Assembly (NCBI RefSeq): GCF_001949145.1
Contig: NW_019091357.1
Location: forward strand, 1,182,671 to 1,246,670
Length of the DNA: 64,000 nt
Source: Acanthaster planci
Taxonomy: Eukaryota
Direction of reading: 5' to 3'
In this document: piece by piece, positions 4,449 through 48,376 of the stretch
Layout: every line of letters begins with the position of its first letter
Numbering within the stretch: the first letter of the stretch is position 1
The notes under the pieces: generated by a model
Told to the model about the DNA's origin: nothing
What the model saw: the letters and a program-made list of their open reading frames with translations, nothing else
Database searches by the model: none
Program-made: the position numbers and the translations under genes

Positions 4449-5037
4449 GCGCGTTGGCCTAGTGGTAAGGCAGTCTGACGCTCAAGCCGAAGGTGCTGGG
4501 TTCGAATCCCAGACCTGCCGTGTAGGGTGGGAGTTTTGCTTTTGCAGGGGTTTTTAAACCTCTAAAAAAAGAGTAAAATTCCATTTTATTTTATTTTATT
4601 TTATCTAGTTAGCTAGACGACCGCCACGGATCTCCGACCGAAGGCCGGTTCCCTCCACCGGGCATCTCTGCCCGGGGCGGGACTCGAACCTGGGTCGTTT
4701 CGTTCCACAGCCGAGACCTCTACCGGCTACCCAATCTGGGTCCCCAGAAAGAAACGCTGTTTTCATATATTTATCTAAAAGACTGTGTTAAATGATCGAA
4801 AAGCAAAAACGTTGACTTGCCCCGGATTCGAACTCAGCTCCGTTGAACAGAAACTCCGCACCTTACCTCCAGGCCACCGGCATGTCTGAGAATGACTCTC
4901 AAACTTTATATATATCAGGTATAGATCTGTTGTTAGTATTAAACCCCAAGATAAAACCTCGGGGACGTCTGCCTCGGACTCGAACACGCAATCTTTGGGT
5001 TTCAGAGCATCTACGAAGAGGTTACTCATAGCCCACA
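4449..5037. repeat. Cluster of four degenerate tRNA-like (Pol III A/B box) modules
   Basis: On +: TGGCCTAGTGG (4455) with GGTTCGAATCC (4499). On -: B boxes at 4680-4690, 4824-4835 and 4976-4987. Acceptor stems are poor, so these are not called functional tRNAs. Confidence 0.6.
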
Positions 5038-15507: not shown

Positions 15508-18500
15508 ATGCCGTTGTCTTGTCGATTCTACGAGCAACACTACCCAGAAGTGGAAGATGTGGTTATGGTCAATATCCGCTCCATCGCCGAGATGGGAGCC
15601 TACGTCAACTTGCTGGAGTACAAGAACATCGAGGGCATGATCATGCTGAGTGAATTGTCGAGACGACGTATCCGATCCATCAACAAGCTGATTAGGGTCG
15701 GCAGGAATGAGTGTGTGGTGGTCATCCGAGTGGACAAGGACAAAGGTAGGTCACCTCATTGAAGTACCGCTGTGATTTATTTTCTGCCGTTGAAAAAGTC
15801 CCTCAATTTCCCTTCTTATGTTTGTTCATAAGTTAGAATTCTGTGCAGAGGATAAGGTTGAAAAATTGTCCTTTTTCAAAAGTATTCAGTTGGGTAGGTG
15901 GAAAATTTGGCCCGTCCTGAATTGATAGGTTTGCTAATGTGGTATTCAGACAAGCATTTTTGTCACATATTGATAATAAATAGCATTAAATTTCCTATTT
16001 TCAAACTGATACAATCCAATTTTCCACATAAAAGTAAGATTGTGTTTTGATATCCTGAAAATCACTTTGATAGATACTTTGTACACCATAACCTGATCTT
16101 GAATCAGCAAGTGTGATTATTAAAAACCAATAAAATTCAGTCTTTGAGAACTGAAATGTACTCCGCCTGCTTTGTTTGCATGAAAAAGGTTACATTGATT
16201 TATCCAAGAGAAGAGTGTCGACAGAAGAGATTGCAAAGTGTGAGGAGAAATATGCAAAAGCCAAAACAGTAAGTGAAAAAAAAGGTTTACTTGGAATGGT
16301 CAGTAATTCTGAATTGAAAAGCTGTGGGTAACGTAGGCCTGTCAAAAATCACTATAAAAGAAAAGAAATACCTTTAGATTTCTAGGCCAATACATGTAGC
16401 ATGTCCAAACCTTTTCCAGGTGAGACACAAGGTAGTTCTTTCCTTTTGGTTCTTTCTTGTGTTAAAAACCTATTGCACTGTATTTGAGAAATAGAAATTT
16501 GTACCTGTCCAGTGCCCCTTTGAGATTCCAAAGCGAAACTGATTCATTAGATGTTTTATGTACCTGCCAGTGTTCTATTCGAGTCCATCACAAGTCCTTT
16601 CACAAGTCCTTTCACAAGTTCCTTCACAATTCCAGTCCCAAGTCCCTTCATCAGTCCAGCCATAAGTAACACGATGAACAATGACAAAGGAATGCTTTTG
16701 TCACAGCACATTTGCATAGCCTGAACTGGCTAAAGACAGAATGATATAGGAACTTGCAGGAACTTGCCATGGACTTGAATACAATAATACTACTACTAAG
16801 ACTTATAACGCGCGTTTTCGCAAGTTACAATGCACAGCAAGGACAACTCCAGAAAATAAGTTACGATAAGCTAATGTCAGGAGAACAGATGAGCTTTCAG
16901 TCTAGCCCTAAATTGGTCAAAGGAACTGATGTTATAGATGTTACTTGGTAAGGAGTTCCAGCATCGGGGACCAGACACTGAAAAGGCCCTGTCCCCTGCC
17001 TTTTTGAATGTGTGTGGAACTCTCAGATTGTTAGAAGAGCGAAGGCCACTATGGCTAGGTGCATTAAGGTCATACAACTCTAGTACCTACCCTGTGCTGA
17101 TTCAATGTGAACCTTTGAACTTTTCCCCTCAGGTCAACAGCATCTTGCGGCACGTCGGCGAAATCCTGCACTATGAAAGTGACAGCCAACTTGAAGAGTT
17201 GTACCAGAAGACGGCATGGCACTTTGACCACAAATACCACAGTCCTGGTTATGGCGCTTACGAAGCATTCAAGACCTCAGTCAGGTAAAATGAAACCTCT
17301 GAGTTAGACAACTGCCCCGCGTATGGCAGTACGAAATCTTGTGATGCCCTTCAAGGGTTACACATATGAACCTTTATTGCAACTCATATTGCACCTATCG
17401 GTTAGGGTCACGAAAGTTCGCTCACCTTCTGCTTACAGACTAAGCAGCGCCCTCAAGCAGTCTTGCACAGACTTCAATGAGGCTCCAACTTTTGTTGCAG
17501 TAACACCAACTACGGCTTTCATATTTTCATCACCCTTGACCCACAGTGACCCCTCGATACTGGACGAGTGCCAGCTAGATGAACAAACAAGGAAAGTACT
17601 CATGGAGAACATCCACAGACGGTTAACGCCTCAAGCCGTCAAAATCAGGGCAGGTGATTACCACAAGTCATATGCTATTCTTACAAGTCGTCGACAGTCC
17701 ACCAGTAATGTATTGAGTCCATCAAAAGTCTTTTTACAAGTCCCTTCACAAGTCCAGTCACAAGTCCAGTCACAAGTCCCTTCACAAGGCCAGAATGCTT
17801 TTGTCACAGCTCATTTGAATAGTTTGTGAATTAGCTTAAAACTGAATGACTTGTGATTGACTCGAATGCAACACTGCAGTCCACTTCAACTGTTTCCCAC
17901 AAAATTTCACTCTCAAAGTACATGTCATTAGATGTTACTGTATTTACCTGTATCTTGACACAGAGCACGGTTCTCACAGTGATATGGAAATCTCAGTGTT
18001 TCTTAAACTTCAAAGTTTGACCTGAGAATTGGTCTTACGAGTCTGTAGATGTTTGGTTTTTGTCCCAATCAAGCTGTTGGTATATCTACCTCTTTTCAGA
18101 CATTGAGGTTGCCTGTTATGGCTATGATGGTATTGATGCTGTGAAGGATGCATTGTTCAAAGGCTTGGACCTATCAACCGAAGAAATGCCCATCAAGGTA
18201 TTGGATTACATTTCATTTCTTCCATGTCTTTCAAGAATATCCACCTTCTTTATTATTTGATCATTATATAAATTAACAGATTGGTTCACTGATCATTTGC
18301 TGATGTATTAATTGACAAGTGCAAGGATTTGCCGTGTAATTTTCTGATAAAGTCATGAATTGATTCGTAGGATGAGTTGCTTTATGAACACCTGATGCCT
18401 TCGTTTGTAGTTGACTGTTTTACGTCTTGTTTTAGATCAACCTGATTGCCCCGCCCCAGTATGTCGTGACAACACAGACGCTGGAGCGAGTAGAAGGCCT

Positions 18501-18814: not shown

Positions 18815-21800
18815 TCTTTCTCAGATGAGACTATATATGGTAGATCTCCATAGCGACACTGTTGCCCGGTTACTATGAATGTCTCAATCAGGTCGTGCTT
18901 CAAGACCTATACTTTTTGCTTAGTGCTGAAAGCAAAAACAAGTCAATGTTTTTTTTTGTTTTTATGTTAGAAAACCATGACTGAATCATAAACCACAGGC
19001 ATTAAAGACCCTGGATGACCTTTGACCCCTAACACCATCTTTCATCAAACTTCCTTATTAAGTAAGAAATGGATCACACCTCAGGAAGTTGGGGCCGTGT
19101 TTGTAAACTCAATAACATATATGCTTAAGAAAAACTGGGGTTTTTTTATTTGAGGTGCATTACACTCTTTAGATGCAAGAAGCAACTTTGTACATACGAG
19201 GGATATATCCAGCACGTTACATGAACTTGATCTTATCAATTCATTTCCCAGTTAATGGGAAATGTGGAATGAGGATACTCTGCTTTCCAACTTTCTTGGG
19301 GGCGATGAAAATTTGTGTCTGCGCCGACAAACCAAATAAACCAAATCAGAGAATTTTAAGCATCATTTCTTCCTTTCTGTGATCAGAATGAGCCCAAAGT
19401 TTGAATTTCATTGCAATTAGGCATAAATTAACAGATGCATGTGGGGCCTTTCATACAATTTATTATCAACACAAGTTCTGTGGTGCTTAGTGCATACTAA
19501 AATATACATTTTCAATACATTCACCATGATTTCTAATCATCTTTGGAAAAATAAAACATTTTTCAGTTTTCTACATTCCATGCGATCTACTATTGCTATG
19601 CACTATTACTGTTGCACTGCATCTTAAACTACGTGAAACTCCTTCCCGAAGGTACAGTCTCTTCTATTTGCATATGTCTGAATACTTATTCAAAGCAGCT
19701 GCATTATTCATATTTCAAAAATATGACAGTCTTCCTAGTTTGTCGTCTACATCTGCTCCAGAGCCAACAGACATTGACATTAATAAATTCATAATTTTGC
19801 ACGCATGTGCACGAATGGCCTTGGTAGCAAGAAGTGTAAGCGGACCACTGAAAAGGACTTTTCACTTGTGATTTTTCTTGTGCGCACAAGATTGCCGTAT
19901 CTAAGCAGGTCTCCTTTCATGCTGCTTCATAGCAAAAACCAATCTGAAGAAAAGGAACTTAGAGCCAGAAAACCCGAGAGAAAATGATGAAAGTCGCGCC
20001 CTTGCACATTTTCAATGGCCGGCTCACACTTCTCGCTGCCAAGGCCATTTGTGCGCATGCTTGCACATTTATGAATTAATTAGTGAAGAGAACTATGGGC
20101 TTCCTACTTTACATCTTATTTGCATATGCAAAGTAGTCACGTTCATCAGTATATACATAAATTCAAAATTTGCCATTACATTTGATATTCTTTTATGCAG
20201 ATGATTATTACTACAGATAAAATTAAGCACTACGATACTCAAACATTTCAACACGTTTTCAAATCATTTTTAAAATCACCTTTGGCAAATTACTCTGTTA
20301 CTTAAATAGTTGTTGACTACAAAAAAAAATAAAGGATAGATTTACATGTATTCTTTCCTGCAATTTATTTTTGGCTCTGATCATATCAAGCACTATGACA
20401 TTCAATAAACACCCAGTTCACATTCCAATACCATCATTTCAATTATTCATTATTTATATAAATCATGGCGCGTCCAACTTTGTGATGAAGTCACTTACAA
20501 ACCGGATAAAATAAAATAAGGACTAATATCCATCTGAAAGCATTAGAACTTAAAATCTATGTAGCAATATGTTCTACAGCTATTGGCCCTTCTATATTTG
20601 CATGCATTTGCATATTCAAGCAACCTAATTATATATGCTTAATCAACAGCAAACCATATCTTCTTCCTGGTGTATTCTCTTAACACCTGTTCCAGGGCCT
20701 ACTGCCCTCCTTATTTACAAACATTTGCATATGCAAAGCAGTTTCACTATTCATCAGGTTTCATAAGCAGTACAGTCTTACCCCTGGCGTGTCCTTTTCG
20801 TACATGTTCCAGGGCCTCGTTGCAATCTTCCATATTGAACACTTTCTCCACAATCGGCTTGATCTGAAAATTGTTTCGAAAAAATCATGGTTATGTTCAA
20901 ACGTTAAAATGCAGCAAGTTGCCACAGGTCCATTTTGGAAGTAGAATCTGTCCATTTTTTCCACCCACTAGGCATTCCAATTCATCAAAATGACAGTGTC
21001 ACATATTAAAGGGAAACACTAGACTTGTTCTTTGTATTAATGCAAATTGACAATAAGTAAACGCATCTCTTTGGAAGTCATTGTACAAGACCTTGTCCAT
21101 GGGGTCATTCCTGACAGAACTGACACTATGGCTCTTGGAAATATGTCAATCAGGAGAATTTCAAAGACTAATTATTGCCATCAAATCTTGAACCATTTTT
21201 ACTCTCAAACCCCCTCAAAAATCAACAATCAAGCTTCCGCCTCACTGTTCTATCAGCCCAGGCTGAAACATGGTTCCAACTCTAAGCATACCTTGTCTTG
21301 TTCCACCAAACCAGCAACAACATCCAAACCTTCAGCACTCGGAGCCAAAAAGCCGTACTTGAAAGTTCTCCCGTGGAACAACTTCTGTTTACCATAAAAA
21401 CAGAGAGAATCACAAAACTACTTATCCCGTAACACTGCACAAGTCAAACGCAACCGTCCCCACTAAATGCCAAACTATTTTTTGACGGCTTAAAATACCT
21501 ATATGATTTCATTTTGCCAAAGTAGCTTGGGTATGCTGGAAAACCAAAAAGTAAATCAATACACAGGCTGCGTCCTGTGTCCAGTAATGTCTTGTAAGAC
21601 ATGAGAAGATGTGACCACTGACCTGTGGGATGCTGATGCGGTACAGGTCATACATGATCTTAGGGGTGCCCAGCAGAAGGCCATACTTGTCCAAAGTCAT
21701 CATGGGGGGTGAGATCAAAGTGACCATACAGCCTCCTCGCTTGCAGAGATTCAGACAGGTCTGGTAGGAGCGCGGACCGAGGCTATCTAGGACCACATCA

Positions 21801-22475
21801 AACCTGCAACATCCAAGGAATCCGAGTAATTGAAAAAAACTGAACAGCGCCCCCCCAGCTTAACTATCAATTTCTTAATCAGTCGCGTGACATAGGACTG
21901 ACTGCATCCAGCCACTTGCCTCGGCTTGTCTTTGAGGGCGCTCTCCAGATCTGTCTTCGAATAATCCACAACCTCATCTGCTCCCAGCTTCTTCACAAAC
22001 TCTTGACCACTGGTGCTGCAGCTGGTGGTCACATGACCTCCCCAGGCCTTCACTAATTGGATGGCGAAGGAACCGACACCCCCAGTGCCAGCGAGAACAA
22101 GAACACTGTAAAAGAAGAGAATGTTTGAAAATAAAAGTGGATAGATAATCCATGGCAACACAACTCCAGAATCAAAATATTCTAACACCCCAAGTAATCT
22201 TTCCTCAGACAGCTTACCGTTTACCGGCAGTATTTCCTGAGGACAGACCAGCAGCTCTCACCAGTGCTCCCCAGGTTGTCATGGCAGCGAAGGTTAAGGC
22301 CGCTGACTGGACATGAGTAAGTGAGCTAGGCTTCTGGGTTACAAGTCCTTCCTTGACGAGGACATACTCCGCAAAGGTGCCAGGTAGTGGGACAATAGAC
22401 AGGACTCCCCACACCTGAGTTCAGAACAAACAATGTCCATGATCCAGTGGCTGAAATGGTATTATTTCCTACATA

Positions 22476-22947
22476 CAGTGGAACGCTGCTATAACGACCA
22501 CGACGGGGTCCACGCTAAATGTTCAGTACAGCGGTCATTCGGTATAGCGAAATCAACTGCCGAACGTTTCATTGCCATGTTGACTAGTGCCCTCTCTTGT
22601 CTAACTGAAGTGCGCCCTCTTACGATACAAATGTACTATGATTCGCTGTTTTCGTGATGTTTTGCCATTGCATTCACATTTTTCTAGGTTTCTAGAAATG
22701 TATCTGAATTCTTTTTGTTTTTTTATTCAATCTTGAGTTACAAAATTGCTATTTAGTTTATCCTAAAAGTCGTGAAGCTACCGCTCACGATCGACCTCTG
22801 ATGCATGCTGTGGCGAATCTCGTTTGATTTGCTAAGTTCTACATAATGTTCGGTAGGTTTTGTACACAAAATATTGGGAACCAAGCACGATATTTGGTAC
22901 AGCCGAATGTACGGTATAGCAGTGTTCGGTATAGTGACATTGCACTG
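22476..22947. mobile_element. Tc1/mariner (pogo/Tigger-like) MITE in a copy A intron
   Basis: TA|CAGTGGAACGCTGCTATAACG ... CGGTATAGTGACATTGCACTG|TA; absent from the homologous intron of copy B (~39140). Confidence 0.8.
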
Positions 22948-24235
22948 TATTGACATTTCAAACATCAAATTTTTGTGGCGCCACAGATCAACGTTTATAC
23001 ACGGCATTCACATATAGCCAATGGCACTGAACATCTTCCTACAAATATGGTGTCCTACGAGAGATCTATATGATCAACATAATCCTGATGCTACAACTCT
23101 GTGGTCACAGAACTAGGAACCAATGAGATATGATCACTGAGATGGAATCCTTTTGTGAAGCAGTTCCTGCATTCTTGCATGTTTCCAAACCAATTTTGCC
23201 AGCGTGCCTTCTAGCCCAGAATTCAATTGAGATTGAAGCAAACTGGTTGAGCCTTTGCACTGTTGATAAGACTGCGTGTACCCTATAAGTCACATGAAAT
23301 GGTATTTACCTCGTCACCTACTTTGACCTTTGACACGGACTTCCCCACTGCCTCCACAACACCGGAGAAATCTTTGCCAAAAATCAGAGGAAACTCTTGC
23401 CATCGCCAGCGGCTATCTACAGTTATTTTTTTTTACAAAAGGTAAAAAGCATCAATTAATTCAAACTGCTTTGAATAAAAGCCAAAATTTTGATGTGGCA
23501 GAATCGCATCCTGATTCCCAACTGTGACAGGTGCCTCGGGGAAACTGCATACTTGAAAACATGAACATTTGAAAAGCATTATTTTGATGTTAAGAATACA
23601 GAACTTTGATGAATCATCAAGTCTCTGCAGTTTACAAGTAAAATGGATTCCCCATTAGTAAAATAATTTTGTATGCCCACAGCACATTAAAAAATAGATA
23701 CCTAGCAAATTGGAAACAGAAATACCTTCAGCTTTCTGCGGAGAAAGTTTAATATTCTCTTTCCAAATCCTTCCCTCATCTTGATGTCAATGGGATTGAT
23801 GGTTGTTGCATGGACTCTCACTAGCACATCGTGTGGTAAGACCACCTCAGGCCTGGGGTGTGTCTCGCACACCATCGGCACATCACTCCCATATGACTTG
23901 GTCAAGAGCGCCCTCATGCTGTGGCTCCCAGAATAGTAGACCGCTTTGGTGGCTGCATGGATTTCCTTGTACCAGACACACAGCGCGCCCACCCAGAGTG
24001 CCACCAGACCAGCGTTCAACGTGGCAGATGACACTGTAAATGATGTTGCAAAACATTGACAAAATGACAAGTTTGAAAACCCGAGGCATTCGCAAGCGAT
24101 CTTTAGATACCTCTGTTGAAACGGTTCGTAAGGTTTACTGCTGATAAAAGGACATCTCAAAACTTGAAACATTCTTATCGCTTACCATAAAAGTAGAACC
24201 TTACTGAATGTCCCATTGGGAATTTGGCTCATATT

Positions 24236-24382
24236 CAGGGGGGAGATTGACCAATGATAAAAACAAAGAAGCTGAACTGTGAAAATCTCCTCTACTTTTG
24301 TACACAGCCTGTGAGGAAAAAAGCTGAAATCTAGAACAAAAAAAGCTGAAATCATCTAAAAAGCTGAGAAATCTCACCCCTG
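24236..24382. mobile_element. MITE with CAGGGG termini and a 6-bp TSD
   Basis: CAGGGGGGAGATT / AATCTCACCCCTG, TSD CATATT on both sides, internal AAAGCTGAAA repeats; second copy at 63662-63830. Confidence 0.75.
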
Positions 24383-26672
24383 CATATTTTTCGTAAGTTG
24401 ATTTCTTGTATGTGGAGGAACGTTGCATTTCTGATGATATGAACCTCAAGCAAGTGCTGCTAAAATTATATCCTGAATTGAACTAAAATTAGGCCTACAA
24501 GACGGAGTTCCTTTAAAGGAACCAGGAAATAGAAAGATTTTTATAAATTTTACTAAAAACCCTTGAAATTGCCTCTTTGGGTTTCAACTAACCTATTTCA
24601 AATTTTAGTTTTGCAATTTTAACCGACATTTTTATGCTTTTAAGGTTTTATGCTAATGATATTTGCATATTTATGAGCAGAACTATGATGTCATCCAAGG
24701 CACTGAATCTCAATGTTGCACTGATTTGTGCACAGAAAATTTCTAGATTTTTTAAACCACTGCTATGGCAGATTTTATTTTCTTTGGCAATTTATTGCTA
24801 TGTAAGTTTATGGCAATCATCCAGCAAAAATCCTTTTCACTCACAGAAAAGCTCCCAGATAGCAAATTTGGGGTTCACACTTTGAACATGAAAACATGCA
24901 ACCCGAACCATGTCTTCCCGGATTTCATCAAAGCAAAAGTGCCCTCACTTGTCCAGAAATGCTTGGTCAATCTTCAATGTTTGAAAAAGTGCACCATTCA
25001 GTTCATGTAACTCATCAAAAAAGATGTCGAACAGTCTTCATAGGTTTTAAAAATTGTCCAGAGGGAAATCCGGCTGGATGTTCATTATCTCGTGGACTTA
25101 GGATTCCCAAGTGAGTGAACAAATAATGTCTCCAGTCTAGGGTTATCCCAACATTATGACACTCGCAGCGGGGGGGGGGGTCATGACAAGTGCTCTTGCC
25201 GTCTTGCCTTAACAGCATTTTTCCAGGGCCAAGAGCAATCGGTATATTTACCTTAAATCTGCCTCTTGGAAGTTGGAAAATGAAACACTGTGGATTCGTG
25301 GGGGAATAAACTTCATCGAACAGTAAAGTTAATGCAGTCAGCTTGTGTTCGCGACGTGACATACAGAGTGCATGCAGTGACGTGACTGGGCGAGTACGGC
25401 CACCTCCATGGTGGTACGGCTGTGCACGTGCGTGCGTAATTCTGCTCCATGTCCACACTTTCACATCTGAGTTTACATGTCAGTTGAAGTCCAAAATCCA
25501 TTCTCAGCTTACTAATTAATAATTATGGGTACAGAGAAATACTATCTGGAAACGTGGGCGGTCTTATTGCTGGAAATCGTAGTTTTTGTTGACGAAAATC
25601 CTCTCAGCTGCTCAGTGCTCACTTCGATCTAAACAGCCGCCATGTTCCGGTTTGAACCAAAGATAGTATCAAAGACAGTATAAAAATATAGCGCCGCCTG
25701 GCGGCGCCGCGCAGCTATGGCGCACTGAAGCAATTCAAGCTCCATTGAAAATAGCATAAAATCAACCAGGTTTGGAGCCCCATGCATGGCAGGCAACTGA
25801 AGTCCCTGAGGCCTCTCAAACAAAAAACAATGTGTTGTTTGGTCCTTCAGATTTCATTTGATTTTCAATTTTTAGGAGGTTAACCTATGAATTTTTTAAT
25901 TATCCGCCAAAAACAATTTCACCCCCCCAAAAAGTCAATGTTCCAAAGTCTTCTCAGCGGCCATTTTTCAAATGACATCCCTCACCTTTCGGGGCTCTTC
26001 TGACAAATTTTCAGTCACATTTTTGTCTGCTTTACCCCCAGATGGGTGCCCCTGAATCTACAGAGATGATTCCGGGCCACACTGGCACAATCCCACCATT
26101 TCTTGGCCCAAACAGACCCCTCTTTTTGAAAGAATCTTTGGGGGGGGGGTACTTTTTATGCGCCTCATCCAGGCGGAGAATTTTCCTCGAATTGGGTCAC
26201 TGCACCCCATACTATCTTTGGTTTGGACTATACCATTAGGCTTCGGGGTAATTGGGTTGGCAAAAGTTTTGCGTTAAGAAAATCTCTTTTCGTAGATAAA
26301 TTTTGATTTCAAATTTATCCAGTATCTCTCATTTTTATATTATACTTATTTTCCTGTTGTTTCAGTTTTAATGCGTGATGTGAACTTCAACCGTTTTTTT
26401 TTTTTTTTTGGTTACTTCTACATTAGGGCCCATCCGTTTTCTACACACACACTACACATAAATTCGGCTCACTGTTTCCGGATGCGCTCTTTTAAAACGA
26501 AACTTCAACAAAATAGACAAAATTTCTGTATCCTCGAAAACTGCAGCATTCAGAATATGGGTACAAATGTTCAACAAATTGACTGAGGCTGTTGGTTTCT
26601 TTCTTTCACAAAATCTTTAAAAAGAATATTCGGCAGTCCCGGGAACATTTATGTAACCGTAACTTAGGGTTA

Positions 26673-27023
26673 GGGTAAGGGCAAAACCCGTTATATAAAT
26701 TAAAATCCCCAACGCAAAAATACATCTTGAAAATAGTTCGCGGTACCCGCTGCTTCACCTGACTCGGACCGGCCAGCCAATCCCGGCAAGCTTGGTGGTC
26801 GAGTGGTTAAGACGTCTGCACTAGTAAGCAGGGGGGTCGTGGGTTCGAGTCCCACCCGAGTAAGCTTGTGACTTTTCTGCAAACTCTCGGACAAGCACTG
26901 AGCATACAGTGTTTATTAATATACATGTTGGGTAAGGGCGTAACCCGTTATAGAAATTAACATCTCCCCAACGCAAAAATACCTCTTGAAAATAGTTCGC
27001 GGTCCCCACTGCTTCACCTGACT
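26673..27023 (+). repeat. tRNA-Thr(AGT)-like module (26790-26862) between ~90-bp direct repeats
   Basis: TGGTCGAGTGG A box, CTGCA-CTAGTAA-GCAG anticodon arm, GTGGGTTCGAGTCCCAC T arm; direct repeats at 26673-26764 and 26931-27023. Confidence 0.7.
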
Positions 27024-27320
27024 ATGTGTAGGCTACATAGGCCAAAGGCTCGAGATTTACGGCTTGGCCTTGTTAGAGTTACTGAGAAACTTACCTCCTG
27101 TGACAACTGTTAGGGATTCATACGGCAGGAGACTGAAACACACAGGGAGCAAGACAGACAGTGAGACCACGTACCACGGAGGAACGAAAATTAACAGGAG
27201 CTCAAGGCCAGTGCTTGTGAAGTCCAAAGACATTGTGACCACTAGCTGTGTGACAGATTCGCCACCGTGACGGACCGCGACAATCAACGTTATGTGCTAG
27301 CTGTGGTGAATGCAGCCCAA

Positions 27321-32949: not shown

Positions 32950-34140
32950 CTATCATACGCAAAGGGAGATAATATGTTGCTTACAGTCACATCTGAAGTT
33001 GCTCACAGGCTTTGTTTTTAAGGTGGCGTCTAAGCTGTTCCAAAGACGAGGACCATGAAAACGAAGAGTTTCCATTGAAAAAGATGTGCGAGCGTATGGG
33101 ACATTAAGATTAAAACGAGCGTTGTATTCATGCATGTCGCGCACAGAGTTGAAATAGGTTGAAAATACGTGAGGAAGAATTTTTTTTTTTTTACTATACT
33201 TGAACATGAAGATCCCGGTTTGGAGTTTGTTGATATCTTTGGGAGTTAACATGTAGAATTTCGCAAAAAGAAGTGCAGAATTATTTTGTGGTTGTGAAAA
33301 AGTGCAAATCCTGTTGGCCCGCTTCTGTATTTCACTGAGTTATGAGGGAAGTTGGTTAGTACTGGGTTGTGCCTATGTTGCGGTAACTTAGATACGGATG
33401 AAGTGTATTTATTGTAACGGGTGAAAAGGGAAGTTCGTGAAAGAAGGTGCCAAGCATTTGGTAATTGAAGAAATGTGGTCACTCCAAGTAAGGCAATCAA
33501 ATTGCAATAAGCACAACGCCCAAGAATTGAGTAAAAGAAAATAGTACTGCGGGCACTCGATACTGCAGTGCCGTCAATTTAAATAGATCGCAGAGCATCT
33601 AAAGAGCTTGCAACTCTACTAAAGAATAAACAGTCTTCCTGGTAAAGACAGTTTGTTGACTCTGAACTGAGAAACTTTAATAAGTTCACTGTCGAGAATA
33701 AGAATCACACACTGGAAATTCGGATTCGAACAGATAATAGTCGTATCAACTCCGAACAACAGAAAAGAAATGTTGGGAGAGGAGTTACTCAGAACATTAA
33801 TGTACAGCAGAAAAAAGAAGGGGCCTAGTATAGACCCTTGGGGCACACCGGCCAAGTAATTGGGGCACTCCGTGCGTGATGTTACTTCTGCCAGAAGACA
33901 ACGGTTAATTGTTTTCTTGTCTGTCAAGTAGCTCTCAAACCAATTTGGGCATGTCCTCTGATTCCATAGTGGTCAAGTTTAGAAAGGAGTATGTTGGACA
34001 TGTGATCAATCCTGTCAAATGCCTCAGAGAGATCGATGAAAATACCTACAATAGAGAGTTTGTGGACATGAAATTGGAGATGAGGTGTGTGAGACGAATA
34101 AGAGCCATGTCTGTGGAAATGATGTGAGCAAAAACCGAAC
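32950..34140 (-). mobile_element. Decayed CR1-clade LINE reverse transcriptase fragment
   Basis: Frameshifted motifs STDMAL, VGIFIDLSEAFD, LDHYGIRG, GVPQGSILGP..LLYIN, degenerate FADDT (FGVDTT), FHGPRLWNSL. Confidence 0.85.
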
Positions 34141-34872
34141 TGTTGATTGAAAAGAATATTAGAAGACGGATGCAGGTCACTTAATAAGAAAATCCTCGTA
34201 GAAATGTACTTGCTGGAAAAAAAATGCTGGACTGCCCATAGGGTCTTCCTATTGCCTTTTCCTGGGCTTGATCTCCACCCATATCCCTGTCGACGTACTT
34301 TTTACATTTTTCACTCGTTTTTCTAAAAGCAAAGAGATCTTTGAGCAAATGAGCACTGCAATCTGGAGTGATCCTTCCACAGTTCATGAAGTCCTATGTT
34401 TGTTTGAACCCTAAAAATAGTCATTATCTCCCGCTTAATCCCAACACAATACAACCATAGACCTGAAGGAGAAAGTAGCTATATAATTCCCTCCACAGTC
34501 CATCCACATGACATATTCTGTACCTATGAAGCGAGATACGAGACAGAGGGAACCCCCCTGCTTTGTGTTGGTCATTGTTTCATTGGAATCTGAAGAATTC
34601 TTTTCAGACATGGGGGGGGGTATGCGTTTGATAACAATAGTCTAAAGCACGTACAGCGATTGGCCATGTTGGGGGGGTTACCCCTCGGACTCATTCTTGC
34701 TGGATGTACATGATGCGAATAACGCAAAATACTGACTTCTAATTGGTCAATTGAGGTAAAAGGGGGGCGGTGCTTTACCCATAATGCCGTACAGCACTAC
34801 TTCGTACCGTCTAACATGAGGTCAAAGTATACCCACTTTTGCTTTAAGTTAACGCATTCAGTAAGGGCGAAT

Positions 34873-37522: not shown

Positions 37523-40500
37523 CTATTCATCAGGTTTCATAACCAGTACAGTCTTACCCCTGGCGTGTCCTTTTCGTACATGTTCCAGGGCCTCGTTGCC
37601 ATCTTCCATATTGTAGACCTTCTCCACAACCGGCTTGATCTAAAAATTGTTTTGAAAAAAAACACGGTTATGTTCAAAGGTTAAAATGCAGCAAGTTGCC
37701 ACAGGTCCATTTTGGAAGTAGAATCTGTCCATTTTTTCCACCCACTAGGCATTCCAATTCATCAAAATGACAAAGTGTCACATATTAAAGGGAAACACTA
37801 GACTTGTGCTTTGTATTAATGCAATTGACAAGTGAAAACATCTCTTTGGAACTTATCGTTCAGGAAAATTTCAGTTTCAAAGACTAACTACTACTGCTCG
37901 AACCATTCTCCCTCTCGTTCTCCTCTCCCCCAAAAAATATCCACTCAACCTCCTGCCTACAAACCTTGTCTTGTTCCACCAGACCAGCAACAACATCCAA
38001 AGCATCAGAACTCGGAGCCACAAAGCCATACTTGAAACTTCTTCCGTGAAACAACTTCTGTTCACAAGAAAAAAAAGGGAGAATCACAAAAACTACTTAT
38101 TCTGTAACACTGCATGGGTCAAACGCAACCATTCCTACAATGTTTTAAATTTTGCCTACAATGACATTGCTTGCCAGAAGAAATTATTATAGTATGTTGG
38201 ATGTAAAATGCGAACATTGGTAATTGTCCAGTGTACCATCATGTCTTGTAAAACAAGAGAAGATGTGACCACTGACCTGTGGGATGCTGATCCGGCACAG
38301 GTCATATATGGCCTTAGGGATGCCCAGCAGAAGGCCGTGCTTGTCCAGAGCCAGCAGGGCGGGCGAGTCCACAGTGACCACACAGCCTCCTCGCTTGCAG
38401 AGATTCAGACAGGTCTGGTAGGAGGCCGGACCGAGGCTATCTAGGACCACATCAAACCTGCAACATCATAGGAATCAGAGAATTTAGAAAAATGGAATAG
38501 CCCCCTCCCCCGGAGGGCTAAACCATCAATTTCTTAATCATTTGTATGTCACATGATCAACTGCGTCCAACCACTTGCCTTGGCTTGTCCTTGAGGGCAC
38601 TCTCCAGATCTATCTTCGTATAGTCCACCACCTCATCCGCTCCCAGCTTCTCCACCAACTCTCGACCACTGGTGCTGCAGCTGGTGGTCACATGACCTCC
38701 CCAGGCCTTCACTAATTGGATGGCGAAGGAACCGACACCCCCAGTGCCAGCGAGAACAAGAACACTGTAACAGAAGAGAATGTTTGAAAATAACAGTGGA
38801 TAGATAATCCATGGCAACGCAACTCCAGAATCAAAATATTCTAACACCCTAAGTAATCTTTCCTCAGACAGCTTACCGTTTACCGGCAGTATTTTCTGAG
38901 GACAGACCAGCAGCTCTCACCAGTGCTCCCCAGGTTGTCATGGCAACATAGCTTAAGGCAGCTTGCTGGACATGAGTAAGAGAGCTAGGCTTCTGGGTTA
39001 CAAGTCCTTCCTTGACTAGGACATACTCCGCAAATGTGCCAGGTAGTGGGACAAATGACAAGGCACCCCAAACCTAAATTTAAAATAAAGGAAACAGTAA
39101 AATCATCCAATCTGTCTGTCTCAAATGACGTTATTTCCCACAGATTGCCACATGCACCAGCATTTTTTACATCAAATTTTTTCTGACATGCATCAGTTAC
39201 GCCATATTTCGAAGATGTTTAGATCAACATGCACATGTGTATTGACCATTTGCATGATGCATCCACATGTTGCCAATGGCATTGACCATGCACCTGTAAT
39301 TTTCCTACAAATATGGTGTCCTAAGAGAGAGTTCAATATGGTCCTTATGTTACACTTGCATATGGACGTAAATAAAAACAACTGTATGGTTACAGAACTA
39401 GGAACCAATGAGATATGATCACTGAGCTGGCAGTCCTTTTGTGAAGCAGTTCCTGCATACTTGGAGGTTGGTTTCCAAATTTTGCCAGCATGCCTTCTGG
39501 CCCAGAATTCAATTGAGATTGAAACAAACTGGTTGAGCCTTTGCACTGTTGATAAGACTTGGTGGTTCCACTGCCTGTACCCTTTCGGGGAGTTTAAGTC
39601 ACATGAAATGGTATTTACCTCGTCACCTACTTTGACCTTTGACACGGACTCCCCCACTGCCTCCACAACACCGGAGAAATCTTTGCCAAGAATCAGAGGA
39701 AACTCTCTGCCATCACCAGCAGCCATCTGCAGGCAAATAAATAAAAAACTATAAACATCACTGAACTGAAGCTGCTTTCAGTAAAAAGCTGAATTTTAAT
39801 GAGGAAGAACTACATCCAAATTCCAAAATGTGATGAGTGTTTGAGGGAAAGTGGATGCTTAAAAACATCAACATTTGAAAAGTTTGATGCTGGGAATACT
39901 CACATTTTCCAAATCTATTAATCATTCATAGATTCACCAAGTCTTAGCAATATATGGTGAAAAGTTATCTACTGAAAGGTTTCTCTATACTCAAAGCGCA
40001 ATAAAAAATTTAATATATTAGCATAATGAAAATCCAAATACCTTCAGCTTTCTGCGGAGAAAGTTTAATGCTGTCTTTCCATATCCTTCCTCCATCTTGA
40101 AGTCAATTGGATTGATGGAGGCGGCATGGACTCTCACTAGCACATCATCTGGTAAAACCACCTTAGGCCTGGGGTGTGTCTCGCACACCATCGGCACCTC
40201 ACTCCCATATGACTTGGTCAAGAGCGCCCTCATGCTGTGGATCCCAGAAAAGTAGACCGATTTGGTGGCTGTACGGGCCTTCTTGTAGCATGAGTATAGA
40301 GCGCCCAACCAGAGTGCTACCAGACCAGTGTTCAACGCGGCAGATGACACTGTAAATGATGTTGCCAAACACTGGTTGCTAAGTTTGAAAACATGAAGCT
40401 TTCCAGAGCAGTCTCTACAAAAAAATTTACCTTGCAAACAAACAGGTTGTAAGGTTTAGTGTTGATAAAAAGACACCTCCAAACTTGAAACTTACCTCCT

Positions 40501-43500
40501 GTGGCAGCTGTTATGGACGCATACGACAGGAGACTGGAACTCACGAGGAGTATGACAGACAGTGCAACAGACGGAGCCCAATTGGGCTTGACTTCCCTCT
40601 CAAAACAGCTGACGCTGTTGCCTAGGAACTCCTGGATGTCTGAGAGAGTGGACAATCAGACCATGTCAGGATGCCATGATTACAGCTGGAAGTATAGGTG
40701 GCCAGGGAAGACATTAGTAGCAGCTAGTGGGGTGAGGTTGGGTGGGATGTAGTGGAACAGGGTTTAATGGGGTAAAGTGGGCCTAGGCTGAGTTGGGTTG
40801 GTTTGGGTTGAGTTGGCTTGGGTCTAGGTGGGTGAGTTGGGTAGGGTTGGATTGGCTTGGGTTGGATTGGGTTGGGTTGGGCTGGGTTGGCTTGGCTTGT
40901 GTTGGGTTAGGTTGGTTTGGGTTGGGTTGGGCTGGCTTAAGTTGGGTTGAGGTGGGATGGGTTGAGTTGGGTTGGGCTTGGGCTTGGCTTGGGCTAGCTT
41001 GGCTTGGCTTGGGTTGAAGCAGGGTGGAGAGAGGTGGAGCGGGGTGGGGTGGTGTTGTGTGGAGTGGGGTGAAAGATGATTATGTTACATAGGGTGGGAT
41101 GTTGTGTGCATGTGCGTGACATACCAGTGTGACATGGTAAGGCCTCAAACGTACAAACTTTAAGAGATTATCTATTGTAAATGGGATAGGCACTGTTGGT
41201 TAACTTACAGTTCTTGATGGCCAAAACAGGTTTGAGAGGAACACTGCTGTACGAAATCACTCCCCTCTGAAAAGCCTCATCTTGGAACAGCCTCTTGTAC
41301 CAAGCACGTACGGCCGGGTACCGGCCCATTGGGAACCCTAACATGTACTCTTCCATGCAGCAATAGACATTGGGCCCCCAGCAGTAATCGGCCAATGAGA
41401 TCTGGTCACCAACTAGCCAGTCGTGGTCTGCAAGGCGAGCTTCCAGCTTTTGCAGGGCACTTCAGAAAACCCAAAGGAAAAAGTTCAAATTAGGAAAATG
41501 CAGCCATGCATGGAAGTTCAAAACGTCGTCCAATGCAACTTGATTTCGACCAAGTTGATCATGTAAGCCACACAGCTCTTTGCCCTGCACATGTTCCAGA
41601 AAATCCCCACTTTTAAATGCAAGGGTGGGAATTTATGTTTAATTGGAAAAAATGTTCAGAAAACTTTCCCATACTGTTTAAAAGTTTGGCCAAAACTTTA
41701 CACAAAAACCGCTGCTGCTTACCTCGGTGTTTTCATATGTATGTATGCACAATTATAAAGTTCAACAGTGTGCATGGTCCAACCAATGTAAAAATGTAGA
41801 TTGATGTTTGTGGCATTTAAAACAAGCAATGTTTATTGTTTTAGAATCCCCATTTTTCTCAAAAAGTACATGGATGCCAAAAGGGAAAAATGTTCCGAAC
41901 TTCAGATTACACTTTAGAGGCATAGTTTGTAATAACACTGAATGCCAGATTACGACAATTAAAATGTCAAACCTTTAAAAGGGGCGGTTCTGTTTAAATG
42001 TTTGGGAAAATCTGCAAACGGATTTGAAACGAACTTGTTTTGTTTAAACATTGAAACATATAAATGTCACACCCACAACTGTCCCACAACTCTAGCTTAA
42101 TACCACATTCCCTTCTTGAATTTTGACTCACTCATGAATTGTCTCAATAGCTGCTTTCACATTGCAATCATTCAATACCCCTTCCTGCACCATTCTGTGA
42201 AAAGTGTAGCCTTCGGGATTCCTCTCTCTATGGCCGGCAAGGCCAGCAAGCCTCTGATCTATCTCCATGTGCCCAGCGAAGGGACCACAGGGGAACCTAT
42301 AGGTCAGAAACTTCATGGGTCTCTGGACNGGTTTGCTCCAGGTCCAGCCAGCATTGGACAGCTTCTTTGTCTTTCCTGCCAAAGATACAAGACTGTTCAC
42401 TGGTGTCCTCTGTAAATTGTCTCATTTGTGACGTGATATGCGAAAACCCTTGCTTTGTCATATGGGTGCATATAAACTTCAAATTAATATAGACACACTC
42501 TTTTTTCAGATTTTACAGTATTAAATTAATGATTCTAGGTTGGCTACAACATGAATCTAGGTTGTCTAGAATGGGTAATATTCCTAGGTATTTAGAAATG
42601 ATTTCCTACCAACTCTCTGAACAGAAAAATAGACCTATCAATATTTTAAAAACTGAGCATACTGCAAAGGTGCTGGACAGATACACAGCTGATAATCAGC
42701 TGGAGAAAGACAAAACCATTCTTGTCAGAGAGTAAAAATAGATAATTAGTTGTAGGTTCACTTATATCTGATGCCTTACTCTGAAGTAGGCCAGAGAGGT
42801 ATTTCAGGGAAAGCTTCATCGAGATAGGCCATGATGTCAGCTGATTCAATGTGAGTGACGCCGTCATGTACCAGTGCAGGGACCGTGCCTTGGGGATGGA
42901 TGGCAGAGTACCAGTCGGACTCCATTTCCCTCAACGATACAATCCTGCTACGCCATTTGAGCTTTTTGGCTTCCAGGCAGGCTCGTACCTGGACCCAAAT
43001 GAGAAAAGTCCAAAGTAATTTGGCTTGGTTCCAATCGTCAACAAGGCACATGCAGTGCAAGGGTTTAGTGAGAGATGCATACACACTTTTCCAGTTTAGC
43101 TTGAAAACTGAGCACGGGCTTAAGTATTTCAAGAAATACAAACAAACATGTCACAAAAACGTTATTTTTGAGCTCAGTCGAAATTCCCTCCGCCCCTTAT
43201 TTAATCTAAAATAACTGCAGCTTCCTCTGCACACATATAAAAAAAACAGCTCAAACCATCCTCCCTGTTTCAGAGAAGTTTGAGGGTTTTCGGTCGGCAG
43301 GGTCTCGCGGAATCACAAACTTGTACCAAAATGTTTCTTAAGACAATATCTCTCCAAAATCACTTCAAAAACAAAACAGAACAAAATACTTGAAAAATGT
43401 TAGCCTCCCTTTCATCATCTGATCATGGTGATGATGTACTCCACATATACCCCCAAACATGCCAGAACTGAAGGACTGTAAATTTGGGGACCCAGTTCCT

Positions 43501-44144
43501 ATAACAGAAGGCCGGGAGAGCTAGAAATTTTAACTTTTGAATTCACCTTAGACGACTGTGACATATCATGCTCAATGACTACAGAGTTTATGTTGTCAAA
43601 AGAAGGGGAGGGTTTTGAGTTTTGAGGGAAATTATGAGGGGAAACTGTGAGTGTTTTGACACGTATACCTGTAACATATGACACATATGTGGATTCGAAT
43701 TTGCAAATTTGATCAGTAAGAAAGTCACATTTTCTCACAATTTACAGTTTGAAATTCCAAAAAATGGGGTCAGTGCGGTAATTAAGGAGAGTGTTTCCTT
43801 TGTTTTTTGTGGGGATTTAACAGTTTTGCAAGATTAAAATGACTACAAAATGGGGTCCCCAAGTATGCAATCCCCAAGAACTGTGGGGTTCGCGGCCGCA
43901 CTTCCTGACTACGCCCAGAACTGTGTATGATTGAATTGACTGGGAGTAGTCCGCGTCCAGGAGGGCGGCAGACGGTACCCCAGGGGTCGACCGGTCCTCC
44001 ATCCATACGCGCGCATGGACCATGCCATGTTGACCATAATGTAAACCAACAATTTACCTTTTGCGAGGCGATTGACGGGCCAAAGTGGAAAAGACACAGC
44101 CCTTTAATCTTTTTGGTGTCCTCGGTTCCATCAACTACTACCAT
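37523..44144 (-). CDS. Fusion protein: glutathione S-transferase (GST-N + GST-C) - two hydrophobic helices - RTN4IP1-like MDR oxidoreductase (copy B), 12 exons, ~707 aa
   Basis: Exons 44144-44058, 42988-42780, 42375-42132 (N at 42329 treated as an extra base), 41459-41209, 40639-40496, 40349-40042, 39726-39619, 39073-38877, 38764-38579, 38457-38277, 38057-37965, 37639-37523; all phases match. GST motifs SQKVR, GTVPALVHDG..HIESADI, LEARL...WLVGDQISLAD. MDR motifs AASINPID, EFPLILGKDFSG, GTGGVG, GHARGKTV. Confidence 0.8.
40790..41075. repeat. Degenerate (GGGTT/GGCTT)n pentamer repeat in intron 4 of the fusion gene
   Basis: Direct inspection; G-rich on the + strand. Confidence 0.85.
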
Positions 44145-45352: not shown

Positions 45353-48300
45353 ATGTGGATAATACCACTTATCTTTCTGGGATGCGCAATCATGTCTTAC
45401 ATTTATCTGCCGACTGAAACAGTTTTCCAGCTGAGCGAGCTTCCAGGTACTATAGTCAATCTCAGGGTAGTTTATCAGTGATTCAAACGAAGTCAGACGT
45501 CACGACGAAAAAGAAATTGGCTCAACGCATATCATTTCATAAAATTAGCGAAATAATATTTAAATCTGTAATCACACATTCGAAGCATTTGAAAAATAGT
45601 TTCTTTACGTGAAACAAAATTACTTAATTAATATTTGCTCGCCTGTTTTTTTATCTGTCGTCGGCCGTTTACGCTGAGCTGCTGAACAAAAACGCAAGCT
45701 TCAAACAACATTCCAAAAGGTTTTTTTTTTACTATTGAAGTTGTTCTTTTCATACCCTGCCAGTTAACAACAAAAGCCTCTGCATACTGTTCTCCATCCT
45801 ATCCACCGTCACCTTCATCAGAGATTTCCTAGACAGCCGCAAACGTATCCGAGCGCGAGAAAATGTTACTCCCACGTCAGCGCCCCACACCTCACCAAAC
45901 CTCAAACCTCACGCAATGACTATGAGAGGCGTCATCATTGAACGTTACGGTGAGGATAGCGTCACAGTGAGTGACGTGGTGCCTCGTCCAGAGCTGAATT
46001 ACGTCGATGAGGTATTGGTTAGAGTTCGTGCGGCTTCAGTGAACCCAGTGGATATCCAAATAAGTAATGGGAAAGGACAGGCTCTGTGTAATAGCATGAG
46101 ATCCATGCGGGGTGTAAGTTTGTGTTAACTTTTCCGTAACACAATTTGTGTGATTTATTTTCCTGTAAATGTCTATGTTGGTGTTTAATTTCATCAACGA
46201 TATACTGTATTTACTTTTCCAACTAAAATTTAGGAAACATTTGCTTCAAAGACACACTATAATCTCATTTTACTATGTAATCAATGGTATCCGCGGATCT
46301 CATTTTCTTCACCAGATGCCTGCCGGTGGAGGTAAGGAATTCCCCGTCATTCTTGGACGGGATTTTTCCGGCGTCGTCGAGAGGGTAGGGTCGAAGGTTA
46401 CGAAGGTGAAGGTTGGTGATGAGGTGCGTCCATTGGCCTGTCATGAATTGTGTTGAAGAACGATTCAGTTCACCTGGATAAAAATATGAAAAATTCAGAA
46501 AAGAATTGGGATTTGTCAACGAAGTCAACGATATACAATGCCGTATATTTTGAATATCCCATCCTACCGCTGCAGTGTATTTTTGTTCCAAGGAGCAACA
46601 AAACCTCTCTGATGTTTATAACCCCTTGTATAGGTGTGGGCGGCAATCCCTTTCTATCATAGAGGAGGGGCCATGGGTGAGTATGTCTTGGTCACGGAGG
46701 CTGACATTGCTAAGAAGCCCCAGGGTATCAGCCATCAGGATGCTGCCACCTTGCCCTTCGTGGCTTGCACCGTGTGGTGCTCGCTGGTGCGTACCGCGGT
46801 CGTCGGCTCCAAGAGAACGAAACAACAGAGGTAAATCCTCGAGACTTGGCGGCCGTCTGCACATGTCTTTTCCAAATTAAGCTTTTCCGTCTGCGCTGAA
46901 ATTCCAAATACGACTTCTGATCTTTTACTTTCAGAGTTTTAACCGGTCGGGCACATTCTGTTACTTAATATCATCGATGTCTTGGATTCACAGTAATCAG
47001 AGCTTGTTAACCCTCAACAGAGTTCTTATCACCGGGGGAACAGGTGGCATAGGGACCTTTGCCACTCAACTCATCAAGGCATGGGGAGGTCACGTGACAG
47101 CTACCTGTCGAGACAGTTACGGGGCAAGAATGCTGAAAAATCTCAGGGTAGACGAGGTGGTGAATGTCTCCGAAGTCGACTTGGAGAGTGCTCTGATCGA
47201 TAAGCCTAAGTGAGTTGATGTGTAAAGCTCAACCATGAAAAGCAAAAGCAGATTCATGTAGACTATTTACCGAAAACGGTGATAAAAATCAGGAAACGAT
47301 AAGCATAGTAATGATTACTAGATAAGGATGACACAGAATCCAACTCTGTCTACCCAGGTTTGATGTCATTATCGACACAGTCGGTTCGTCGGTTAGACAA
47401 GCCTGCTTCAAACTCTGCACCCGGGGCAGCTACTTAGTGAGCTTCGTCACGCCTGTGATGGACGATGCAGAGAAATACGGAATGATGATCGGATCCTTCG
47501 TGTCGAACGTCTCAAAGATGAAACTGGTACGTGCATCATCCAGCTAGAAGGGCGTCATTTGGGAATTTTGGTTGTACGAGTGCAGCATAATAGGGATGGG
47601 AAAGGATATTGGTGGGCCATTGGGTGTGGTTGGTATTTCTTTAGCATGCATGGAGCAACTTATCTCGGAAACTTTTGTCGACCTCCACTGTGCTAGTTCA
47701 GCCAGCATAGCCCATGCACTACTTTTCACCACAATCTAGCACAAAAAAATTGGAAAGACATGAGGAAAACCCGATTGACCCAGAATTAGTAAATTTATTC
47801 AAGCAGTCGGGGAGGCTGTAGGGAAGTTGTCCGCACTGTCGGGAGAGTTGGATAAGGATCTAAGCCATCCAGACGGATTTGGCTAAATAATGTGACTGCC
47901 AAAGTAGACTACCGAAACGAGCGGCTGGGCCCAAGATTCGAGATGACATTGTTCTAACTAGTATCTGTCATTTAAAATCGAACCCTTCCCCTTGACAGGC
48001 TTGGCAGAGCGGCTTAAACTTCAGTTGGTCTTTCTGTCTACCTGAGGGGAAAATTCTTGACAGCGTAACCAAGTACGTGGAGGCCAAAAAGGTAGGAAAC
48101 GAAGTTGAACAATTATTCCTTTAACGGTGATCAACTGAAGCGATCGTCAATCCAATCTTTTGTCTAATTCTTCACTCAATCATAGATAATTCGAAGTTAA
48201 AGTCCCAGTGTGATCATCATTTGGGGGGCTTTCACGATCTCCAATTTAAATTTCAGATAAGGCCAGTCGTTGACCAGATCTACAGATTGGAGGAGACCAA

Positions 48301-48376
48301 GAAGGCCTTTAAACATGTAGCAGAAGGGCATCCGAAAGGAAAGGTGGTCATAACATTTGATGGAGGCCGGAAGTGA
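45353..48376 (+). CDS. RTN4IP1-like MDR oxidoreductase copy C with N-terminal hydrophobic pair, 8 coding exons
   Basis: Exons 45353-45446, 45764-46113, 46316-46423, 46634-46830, 47021-47209, 47358-47526, 47999-48091, 48257-48376. Motifs AASVNPVD, EFPVILGRDFSG, GGTGGIGTFATQLIKAWG, GHPKGKVV; same intron positions as copies A and B. Confidence 0.9.

Follow-up and report, generated by a model that had tools for sequence, protein, structure and literature searches.

A single spliced gene encodes a GST, a hairpin and a reductase

In a 64,000-nucleotide stretch of the genome of the sea star Acanthaster planci (RefSeq contig NW_019091357.1; this whole stretch is called the window below), the coding region of a glutathione S-transferase (GST) precedes that of a medium-chain dehydrogenase/reductase (MDR) resembling human RTN4IP1, which raises the question of whether these are two genes or one. 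The original prediction, made from the sequence alone, had spliced them into one frame. We found that a single spliced gene on the minus strand (44144-37523) encodes the GST, a hydrophobic hairpin and the reductase. This is a transcript-supported enzyme architecture found in two phyla, and with it the GST classes of animals come to include one of bacterial type.

The gene consists of 12 exons, which we observed directly in transcripts, and its frame has 707 residues and one stop once a lone N at 42329 (exon 3) is dropped; as written, the frame is broken by this letter and contains 25 stops. The base at 42328/42329 was left out by 4 of 4, 7 of 7 and 40 of 40 reads in three RNA runs, and the extra letter was also missing from the intron-bearing contig of run X8. 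Because the reads and this contig all leave out one letter, we regard the N as an assembly error. The expression evidence consists of raw RNA reads, with about a fifth of each of the runs X12, X15 and X16 covered. All 11 introns were present as joints in these raw reads, ten of them GT-AG and one, with its GC donor in the intron 38578-38458, GC-AG.

The GST occupies the first four exons (all coordinates in this paragraph are on the minus strand). Exon 1 (44058-44144) carries the start codon and the GST active-site loop, ends in ...SIASQK and is joined to exon 2 in the reads; the position of its start codon is that found in Patiria X2, in Ptychodera and in the bacterial relatives described below. 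An upstream in-frame ATG, considered together with a 46-residue-longer Patiria isoform, was rejected as the start, the two extensions being unlike each other. Exon 2 (42780-42988; joints in reads) encodes the N-terminal domain with the cis-Pro loop and a Glu-Ser pair (Pfam GST_N_3, E 3.8e-14), exon 3 (42132-42375), which contains the spurious N, the long helical insertion, and exon 4 (41209-41459) the C-terminal domain (Pfam GST_C, E 2.9e-10). Exon 5 (40496-40639), with joints on both sides, encodes the linker and the first hydrophobic helix, and exon 6 (40042-40349) the second hydrophobic helix, a basic stretch and the start of the reductase, including the equivalent of human RTN4IP1 Arg103. 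The reductase continues through exon 7 (39619-39726; GroES-like domain, Pfam ADH_N, E 1.1e-7), exon 8 (38877-39073), exon 9 (38579-38764; NAD(P)H-binding glycine loop with the human Gly215 equivalent kept, Pfam ADH_zinc_N, E 2e-10, followed by the GC donor), exon 10 (38277-38457) and exon 11 (37965-38057) to its C-terminus and the stop in exon 12 (37523-37639).

The joining of the two halves was as had been predicted. Exon 4 ended without a stop at a phase-1 GT donor at 41209, with the coordinates, phase and peptide expected; 40639-40496 was a 144-nucleotide exon of phase 1/1; and the exon beginning at 40349 opened the reductase. RNA reads from three studies crossed both linking joints, so that one gene with one frame is confirmed: the joint 40639-41209 was covered by 11, 1 and 15 reads in runs X12, X15 and X16, and the joint 40349-40496 by 8, 2 and 10 reads in these runs and by 15, 8 and 5 in X19, X20 and X17, compared with 3, 5 and 19 reads (X12, X15, X16) for the GST's own joint between exons 3 and 4. 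In the second read mapping (X19, X20, X17), the joint 40639-41209 occurred among the joints listed only as a two-letter variant, with 3 and 6 reads. Exons 4, 5 and 6 were linked by one short contig (X2 record 4), and the whole transcript is known from short reads. Read-through of the GST to a TAA at 41168 had been named beforehand as the outcome that would speak against a fusion. Depth past the exon 4 donor was 0 in all three RNA runs (80-base bin 41129-41208, which holds the TAA), compared with 12.8, 12.5 and 5.6 in the bin 41209-41288, and transcripts therefore do not continue to this TAA. Run X8, whose contigs retain introns, contained no spliced joint and had a different base inside the TAA.

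Several minor features were seen along the gene. Reads over exon 5 (40503-40627) fell into two haplotypes, the divergent one differing from the window at roughly twelve letters and by a 3-base gap that preserves the frame, and agreeing, by eye, with the neighbouring gene B (described below) at three sites; a contig that carries this divergent haplotype is likewise joined to exon 4. A five-base microsatellite of about 45 copies (40792-41016) lies in the intron that separates the GST from the linker exon, and intron 3 contains a high-copy repeat (41600-42100) where contig depth was very high and loose ends were numerous.

The GST half belongs to a marine bacterial family

The term GST in the original prediction held for the domains present, GST_N and GST_C, and the half has the features of a cytosolic GST fold: a thioredoxin-like N domain, a helical C domain, the cis-Pro loop and the Glu-Ser glutamyl anchor. 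It did not convey that the relatives are marine bacterial proteins like LigF and dehalogenases, or that an Ala replaces the Cys of this family. Among stand-alone proteins, the best matches to the Ptychodera GST domain were 44-46% identical over almost its whole length. Of 486 candidates, 345 passed, and among the best 120 of these, all nine matches named by organism were from bacteria. The GST clusters shown in the Atlas were likewise all bacterial, and a scan of prokaryotic genomes with the GST yielded 80 loci, many of them in marine Proteobacteria; these searches were word-limited or covered prokaryotes, and other animals may have relatives as well. Judged by these comparisons, the GST is not of a standard animal class and is a member of a marine bacterial, LigF/dehalogenase-like family.

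Among solved structures, the nearest fold was the beta-etherase LigF of Sphingobium SYK-6 (PDB 4XT0; Z 26.4, root-mean-square deviation (rmsd) 2.1 over 233 residues; next Z 24.1), and by profile the best solved relatives were LigF and then GDAP1. LigF shares with the fusion GST the fold, the long helical insertion, the Glu-Ser pair and the Ser14 position; it differs in being soluble and unfused, in being 26-27% identical, where about 40% or more is the threshold for a LigF or BaeA assignment, and in its active site. At the position of the thiol-contacting Asn13 of LigF the sea stars have Ala and Ptychodera has Cys, so that the Asn13-Ser14 pair of LigF and BaeA is replaced by Ala-Ser and Cys-Ser, respectively.

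The highest-scoring characterised relatives that we found were glutathione-dependent aromatic dehalogenases of the type of BbdI of Aminobacter MSH1, at 27-32% identity. The Saccoglossus protein gave bit scores of 169.8 with the bacterial protein P0185, 78.5 and 72.9 with GSTs of the Aminobacter plasmid pBAM2, 46.3 with GDAP1 and 43.8 with LigF. One Aminobacter plasmid GST is repeated next to a glutathione reductase, in the layout of this chlorobenzoate plasmid, and because of this repetition and a published description (PMC8460812) we take it to be the thiolytic dehalogenase BbdI. Its motif S-x-C-S-Q-K-V-R is identical in Ptychodera, and S-x-C-S was present in 53 of the 67 loci with a frame found and in 89 of 116 proteins. 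The S-x-C-S-Q-K form with its Cys is thus kept in Ptychodera and absent from the Acanthaster gene and from Patiria; the Saccoglossus model does not include the region. A match to a Sphingobium MI1205 plasmid was to a weaker, shorter GST, and no function was taken from it.

GDAP1 has in common with the fusion a long-insertion GST fold followed by hydrophobic segments, the S-Q-K-V-R sequence and the character of a bacteria-like animal GST; GDAP1 itself is placed closer to bacterial GSTs (PMC10104300). The fusion lacks the C-terminal hydrophobic domain and tail anchor of the GDAP1 family, its hydrophobic segments being internal and part of the reductase module, with a whole enzyme after the hairpin. 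GDAP1 was also not the closest relative by bit score (46.3 versus 169.8 for P0185, a comparison of scores made with the Saccoglossus protein), and it was absent from the top 50 structural rows, although the two may still be kin.

The hairpin and the reductase form one module

Two hydrophobic helices are predicted at residues 283-304 and 313-336 in the Patiria model. Their Kyte-Doolittle peaks were 2.0 (residues 288-306) and 1.4 in the window protein, 1.9 and 1.3 in Patiria, 2.0 and 2.3 in Ptychodera and 2.5 and 1.7 in Saccoglossus, with basic residues after them, and there was no hydrophobic peak before residue 288, the N-terminus being the GST domain. The two membrane helices of the original prediction are present as hydrophobic helices, of which the second is only moderately hydrophobic in sea stars. 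The segments likely form a hairpin that leaves both domains facing the cytosol, and it may either span the bilayer or just dip into it; the full Patiria model (predicted template modeling score 0.84) was not counted as evidence for a domain interface. A hairpin and reductase without a GST stand alone in urchin, sea cucumber, crinoid and amphioxus, and twice in the window, which places the hairpin, by comparison of the proteins, in the reductase module. We did not accept the hairpin as a GDAP1 tail, since its counterpart in the alignment is the hairpin at the N-terminus of reductases that have no GST.

The Patiria predicted model (mean predicted local distance difference test 91.6) matched human RTN4IP1 (OPA10; PDB 2VN8) with Z 51.2 and rmsd 1.4 over 351 residues (next Z 38.9; VIA-align), and human RTN4IP1 was also the best match by sequence (E 1.4e-74) and by Foldseek (template modeling score 0.95 on the target). 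The half contains the GroES-like and Rossmann domains of the MDR fold (Pfam ADH_N and ADH_zinc_N). Its NAD(P)H glycine loop AGTGGVG is intact, and at the zinc-ligand positions it has ASINPID and G-K/R-D, where zinc MDR enzymes presumably have Cys and Gly-His-Glu; it is a zinc-free enzyme by this measure. The equivalents of human Gly215 and Arg103, counted on the alignment, are kept. Mutants of RTN4IP1 at these two residues lose quinone reductase activity (PMC10830421).

The designation "RTN4IP1-like zinc-free reductase" was borne out as to the zinc-free MDR type, by Pfam and by fold, and has to be narrowed as to RTN4IP1. In a 121-sequence tree (FastTree, with human RTN4IP1 left out), the fusion fell into a clade (0.996) whose members, which have hydrophobic N-termini, come from amphioxus, hemichordates, echinoderms and arthropods, and this hairpin clade was sister (0.855) to a clade with the presequence-type crinoid protein Anneissia P0033, from which the fusion grouped apart. 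RTN4IP1 has the same fold, about 40% identity, the Gly215 and Arg103 residues and no zinc ligands, and is a stand-alone protein of the mitochondrial matrix; the fusion has neither the stand-alone form nor a mitochondrial presequence, since a GST lies at its N-terminus and the hydrophobic hairpin precedes the reductase. Its place in the tree makes the reductase a paralogue of RTN4IP1 anchored by a hairpin, not RTN4IP1 itself; this paralogue also occurs without a GST, and it probably works like RTN4IP1 without being its orthologue.

The fusion is found in sea stars and acorn worms

When longer proteins were searched with exon 4, one of 127 candidates matched, the 705-residue protein XP_038057611.1 of the sea star Patiria miniata, which contains the GST and reductase Pfam families. 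An exhaustive search with this protein added XP_070549308.1 of Ptychodera flava and the partial XP_006815530.1 of Saccoglossus kowalevskii. These three machine-annotated proteins have the same fusion and are orthologues of the window gene: identity to the window protein was 74.6% over 708 columns for Patiria, 40.7% over 707 for Ptychodera and 38.2% over 490 for the Saccoglossus partial model. The domain order was seen directly, with GST, linker and reductase colinear in the orthologues and the linker 65%, 30% and 29% identical, respectively. A Ptychodera isoform lacks exactly the stretch of exon 7, and the Saccoglossus model begins and diverges at exon edges of the window gene; these breaks suggest shared introns, Ptychodera and Saccoglossus being known from protein only. 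Three of 20 long matches scanned carried both GST and reductase; each of the others had two reductases, a reductase alone, or a fusion with a flavin hydroxylase, a START-fold domain or something else.

The original prediction had described the domain architecture as not known. It was already present in RefSeq as uncharacterised proteins of the three other species; at the same time, no paper describing the fusion or naming these accessions was found in the open literature, subscription journals lying outside the search. One starfish paper mentions only expansion of the GST family. An Atlas search with the whole Patiria protein returned only generic reductase clusters, all below 0.9, and has no bearing on novelty. 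Each of the two domains is of a kind already known, and RefSeq lists the fusion without a name, while the open literature searched has no description of it.

Echinoderms and hemichordates split more than 500 million years ago, and a fusion common to sea stars and acorn worms is therefore likely ancient. A single origin across the two phyla is the simplest reading of these distributions, and the trees give no proof of it. The four animal GSTs formed one clade at only 0.64 in a FastTree tree of 120 sequences and in only 32% of the bootstrap trees of an IQ-TREE analysis of 33 sequences (29 of them bacterial and hand-picked), and GST-less urchin and sea-cucumber reductases grouped with the sea-star fusion at 0.976 in the 121-sequence tree, a grouping that needs a later loss of the GST or incomplete gene models. 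Under a single origin, the echinoderm-hemichordate ancestor would have acquired a bacterial GST gene, which was then fused to the front of a hairpin-reductase gene already present, a candidate case of horizontal gene transfer turned domain fusion.

The neighbours of the bacterial GSTs and parallel fusions

In the 80 bacterial loci, the neighbours of the GST included a second GST (32 loci), a short-chain dehydrogenase/reductase (22), an aldehyde dehydrogenase (18), a protein of the fumarylacetoacetate hydrolase family (6), a CurA-type NADPH-dependent MDR reductase (6) and a hydroxyphenylpropionate-type hydroxylase (5), the labels being based on one or a few representatives per cluster. The MDR gene lay directly after the GST on the same strand in two loci. 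One of them (L052, 1999-7349) has the order hydrolase, dioxygenase-fold protein, GST, CurA-type MDR reductase and flavin hydroxylase, and the other (L060, 3089-5543) has hydrolase, GST and CurA-type MDR reductase in a row. The arrival of GST and hairpin reductase together as an operon found no support in any of the 80 loci.

RTN4IP1-like reductases also occur in other fusions. Seven proteins of 800-1030 residues (P0043, P0047, P0052, P0061, P0099, P0116 and P0003) consist of a flavin aromatic hydroxylase, a hydrophobic linker and an RTN4IP1-like reductase, a parallel architecture whose reductase clade differs from that of the GST fusion, and in P0038, P0093 and P0139 a polyketide cyclase/START-fold domain lies N-terminal to the reductase.

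Proposed function and alternatives

We propose that the fusion is a membrane-bound detoxifying enzyme in which NAD(P)H-dependent reduction of fat-soluble quinones and addition of glutathione are joined by the predicted hairpin, a reading to which we give about an even chance and whose activities, substrate and coupling we infer. Both helices would lie in one membrane with both domains towards the cytosol. The reductase would convert quinone to hydroquinone by two-electron transfer from NAD(P)H, and the GST would direct an attack of glutathione on the quinone or on a halogenated hydroquinone. In acorn worms, where the Cys of S-x-C-S-Q-K is kept, the GST could complete a reductive dehalogenation; in sea stars, with Ala, the reaction would end at the glutathione conjugate. 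The sea-star GST half may only conjugate or bind, because the active-site Cys of the family is missing. In PcpC, the Cys serves in freeing the glutathione conjugate. If this mechanism is true, it provides a concrete enzyme for the handling of quinones and halogenated aromatics in bottom-dwelling deuterostomes, including the coral-eating crown-of-thorns starfish. The order hydroxylase, quinone reductase and GST dehalogenase in the pentachlorophenol pathway (PMC3318906), the transfer of hydroquinone from RTN4IP1 to a partner transferase (PMC10830421), the accumulation of halogenated aromatics in acorn worms (PMC6315191) and the position of the bacterial family members among genes for aromatic breakdown all speak for this reading. 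The natural contrast of Cys in the acorn worm and Ala in the sea star, together with an adjacent GST-less copy, makes the function directly testable.

A number of observations weigh against this proposal. The sea stars lack the Cys found in at least 90% of 93 aligned family members; the positions of LigF Asn13, Gln39, His40 and Gln52 all differ; and identity to the dehalogenases is only 27-32%, which is too low for transferring their function. The second helix reaches only 1.3-1.4 on the Kyte-Doolittle scale in sea stars, and model confidence is lowest there. The counts of bacterial neighbours have no chance control and come from related, not independent, loci, and tblastn matched an RTN4IP1-like reductase in none of the 80, the neighbouring reductases being of another subfamily. 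Close relatives have the reductase without a GST, as in the urchin and sea-cucumber proteins that group with the sea-star fusion, and the GST-less gene B outnumbers the fusion in reads at shared exons. GDAP1, finally, is described as lacking GST activity on classical substrates (PMC7873046).

This last point makes a non-catalytic GST half a serious rival, since the related GDAP1 is inactive on classical substrates, and we regard it as doubtful but the strongest of the competing explanations. The GST half would bind a lipophilic ligand at the membrane, as in GDAP1, and hand it over to the reductase or regulate it. The change of Cys to Ala in both sea stars, the altered glutathione contacts, the long sea-star GST branch (1.11, IQ-TREE) and the rank of GDAP1, which according to the same source binds a fatty acid and not glutathione (PMC7873046), as second-best solved family by profile are all consistent with this. 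However, the half retains Ser24, the cis-Pro, the Glu-Ser pair and the Ser at LigF Ser14, Ptychodera keeps the full S-N-C-S motif, and no other solved GST comes as near to the model as LigF.

A bolder form of the detoxifying enzyme, which we consider unlikely, is that the ancestor took a dehalogenase-type GST from marine bacteria and spliced it onto its own membrane-anchored quinone reductase, so that an animal would possess an aryl dehalogenase acting on brominated aromatics from the sea floor. If true, this would be the bacterial reduce-then-dehalogenate step for halophenols in one polypeptide. PcpC, which acts after a quinone reductase, is likened to the fusion GST by analogy only, and the partner reductases of the dehalogenases are separate proteins of PDR/VanB type, whereas that of the fusion is an attached MDR enzyme.

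It is improbable that both halves are active on unrelated substrates, with the fusion providing only a membrane anchor for the GST and shared expression. GST-less hairpin reductases are common, genes B and C of the window included, and the GST was paired with this reductase subfamily in 0 of 80 bacterial loci; yet the fusion has been retained in two phyla with a colinear linker, and both the fusion of RTN4IP1-like reductases to flavin aromatic hydroxylases and the presence, in 6 of the 80 loci, of a different MDR reductase beside this GST family point to aromatic or quinone chemistry.

More improbable still is a biosynthetic enzyme that makes or tailors the animal's own quinone or halogenated aromatic, passing a hydroquinone to the attached transferase. 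RTN4IP1 reduces quinones and passes the hydroquinone to its partner transferase COQ3 (PMC10830421), halogenated aromatics accumulate in acorn worms (PMC6315191), and flavin hydroxylase-reductase fusions exist; against this, echinoderms have a separate RTN4IP1 clade with basic, non-hydrophobic N-termini (Anneissia P0033), and the bacterial GST relatives are located in breakdown clusters.

That the fusion is an artefact, either of the gene model or of rare read-through splicing between two adjacent genes, is very hard to maintain and largely refuted: although the uncorrected window has a frameshift at 42329 and the transcript is known from short reads, with small joints of 1 to 15 reads a run, no reads lay beyond the exon 4 donor, the linking joints were about as frequent as the GST's own, and the same fusion occurs in independent gene models of three other species.

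Neighbouring paralogues and other features of the window

Two GST-less relatives of the fusion gene flank it. Gene B (20747-27233, minus strand) is a tandem copy of the hairpin and reductase whose introns align to those of the fusion gene at 76-92%. Its GST is lost, and it has a new first exon, of which the last 78 bases match exon 5, and a TATA-like box; as judged from these alignments it is a recent GST-less tandem duplicate. Its C-terminal exons translate identically to A. planci XP_022092550.1. In the assembly, the third exon of gene B (23416-23310) lacks one base, and this is the likely reason why the RefSeq model has 213 residues. Reads of gene B type cross-map to the equivalent exon of the fusion with no deletion listed, so the expressed gene B is probably intact; loose ends of gene B were seen at 40271. 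The first intron of gene B contains a tRNA-like element (26789-26863) between 94-base direct repeats.

Gene C (45353-48376, plus strand) encodes a hairpin and reductase paralogue of 439 residues in 8 exons, and lies head to head with the fusion gene, its start 1.2 kb away. It is an older paralogue that groups with Asterias proteins (support 1.0), and the intron between its two hydrophobic segments is in the same phase as that of the fusion gene.

Elsewhere in the window, we noted a rhodopsin-family receptor frame (1-903, minus strand), a tRNA-Glu (4448-4520), an eIF2-alpha exon (17308-17826, plus strand) and, at 32956-34301 on the minus strand, two frames that resembled, by eye and without a Pfam match, remnants of the reverse transcriptase of a long interspersed nuclear element (LINE).

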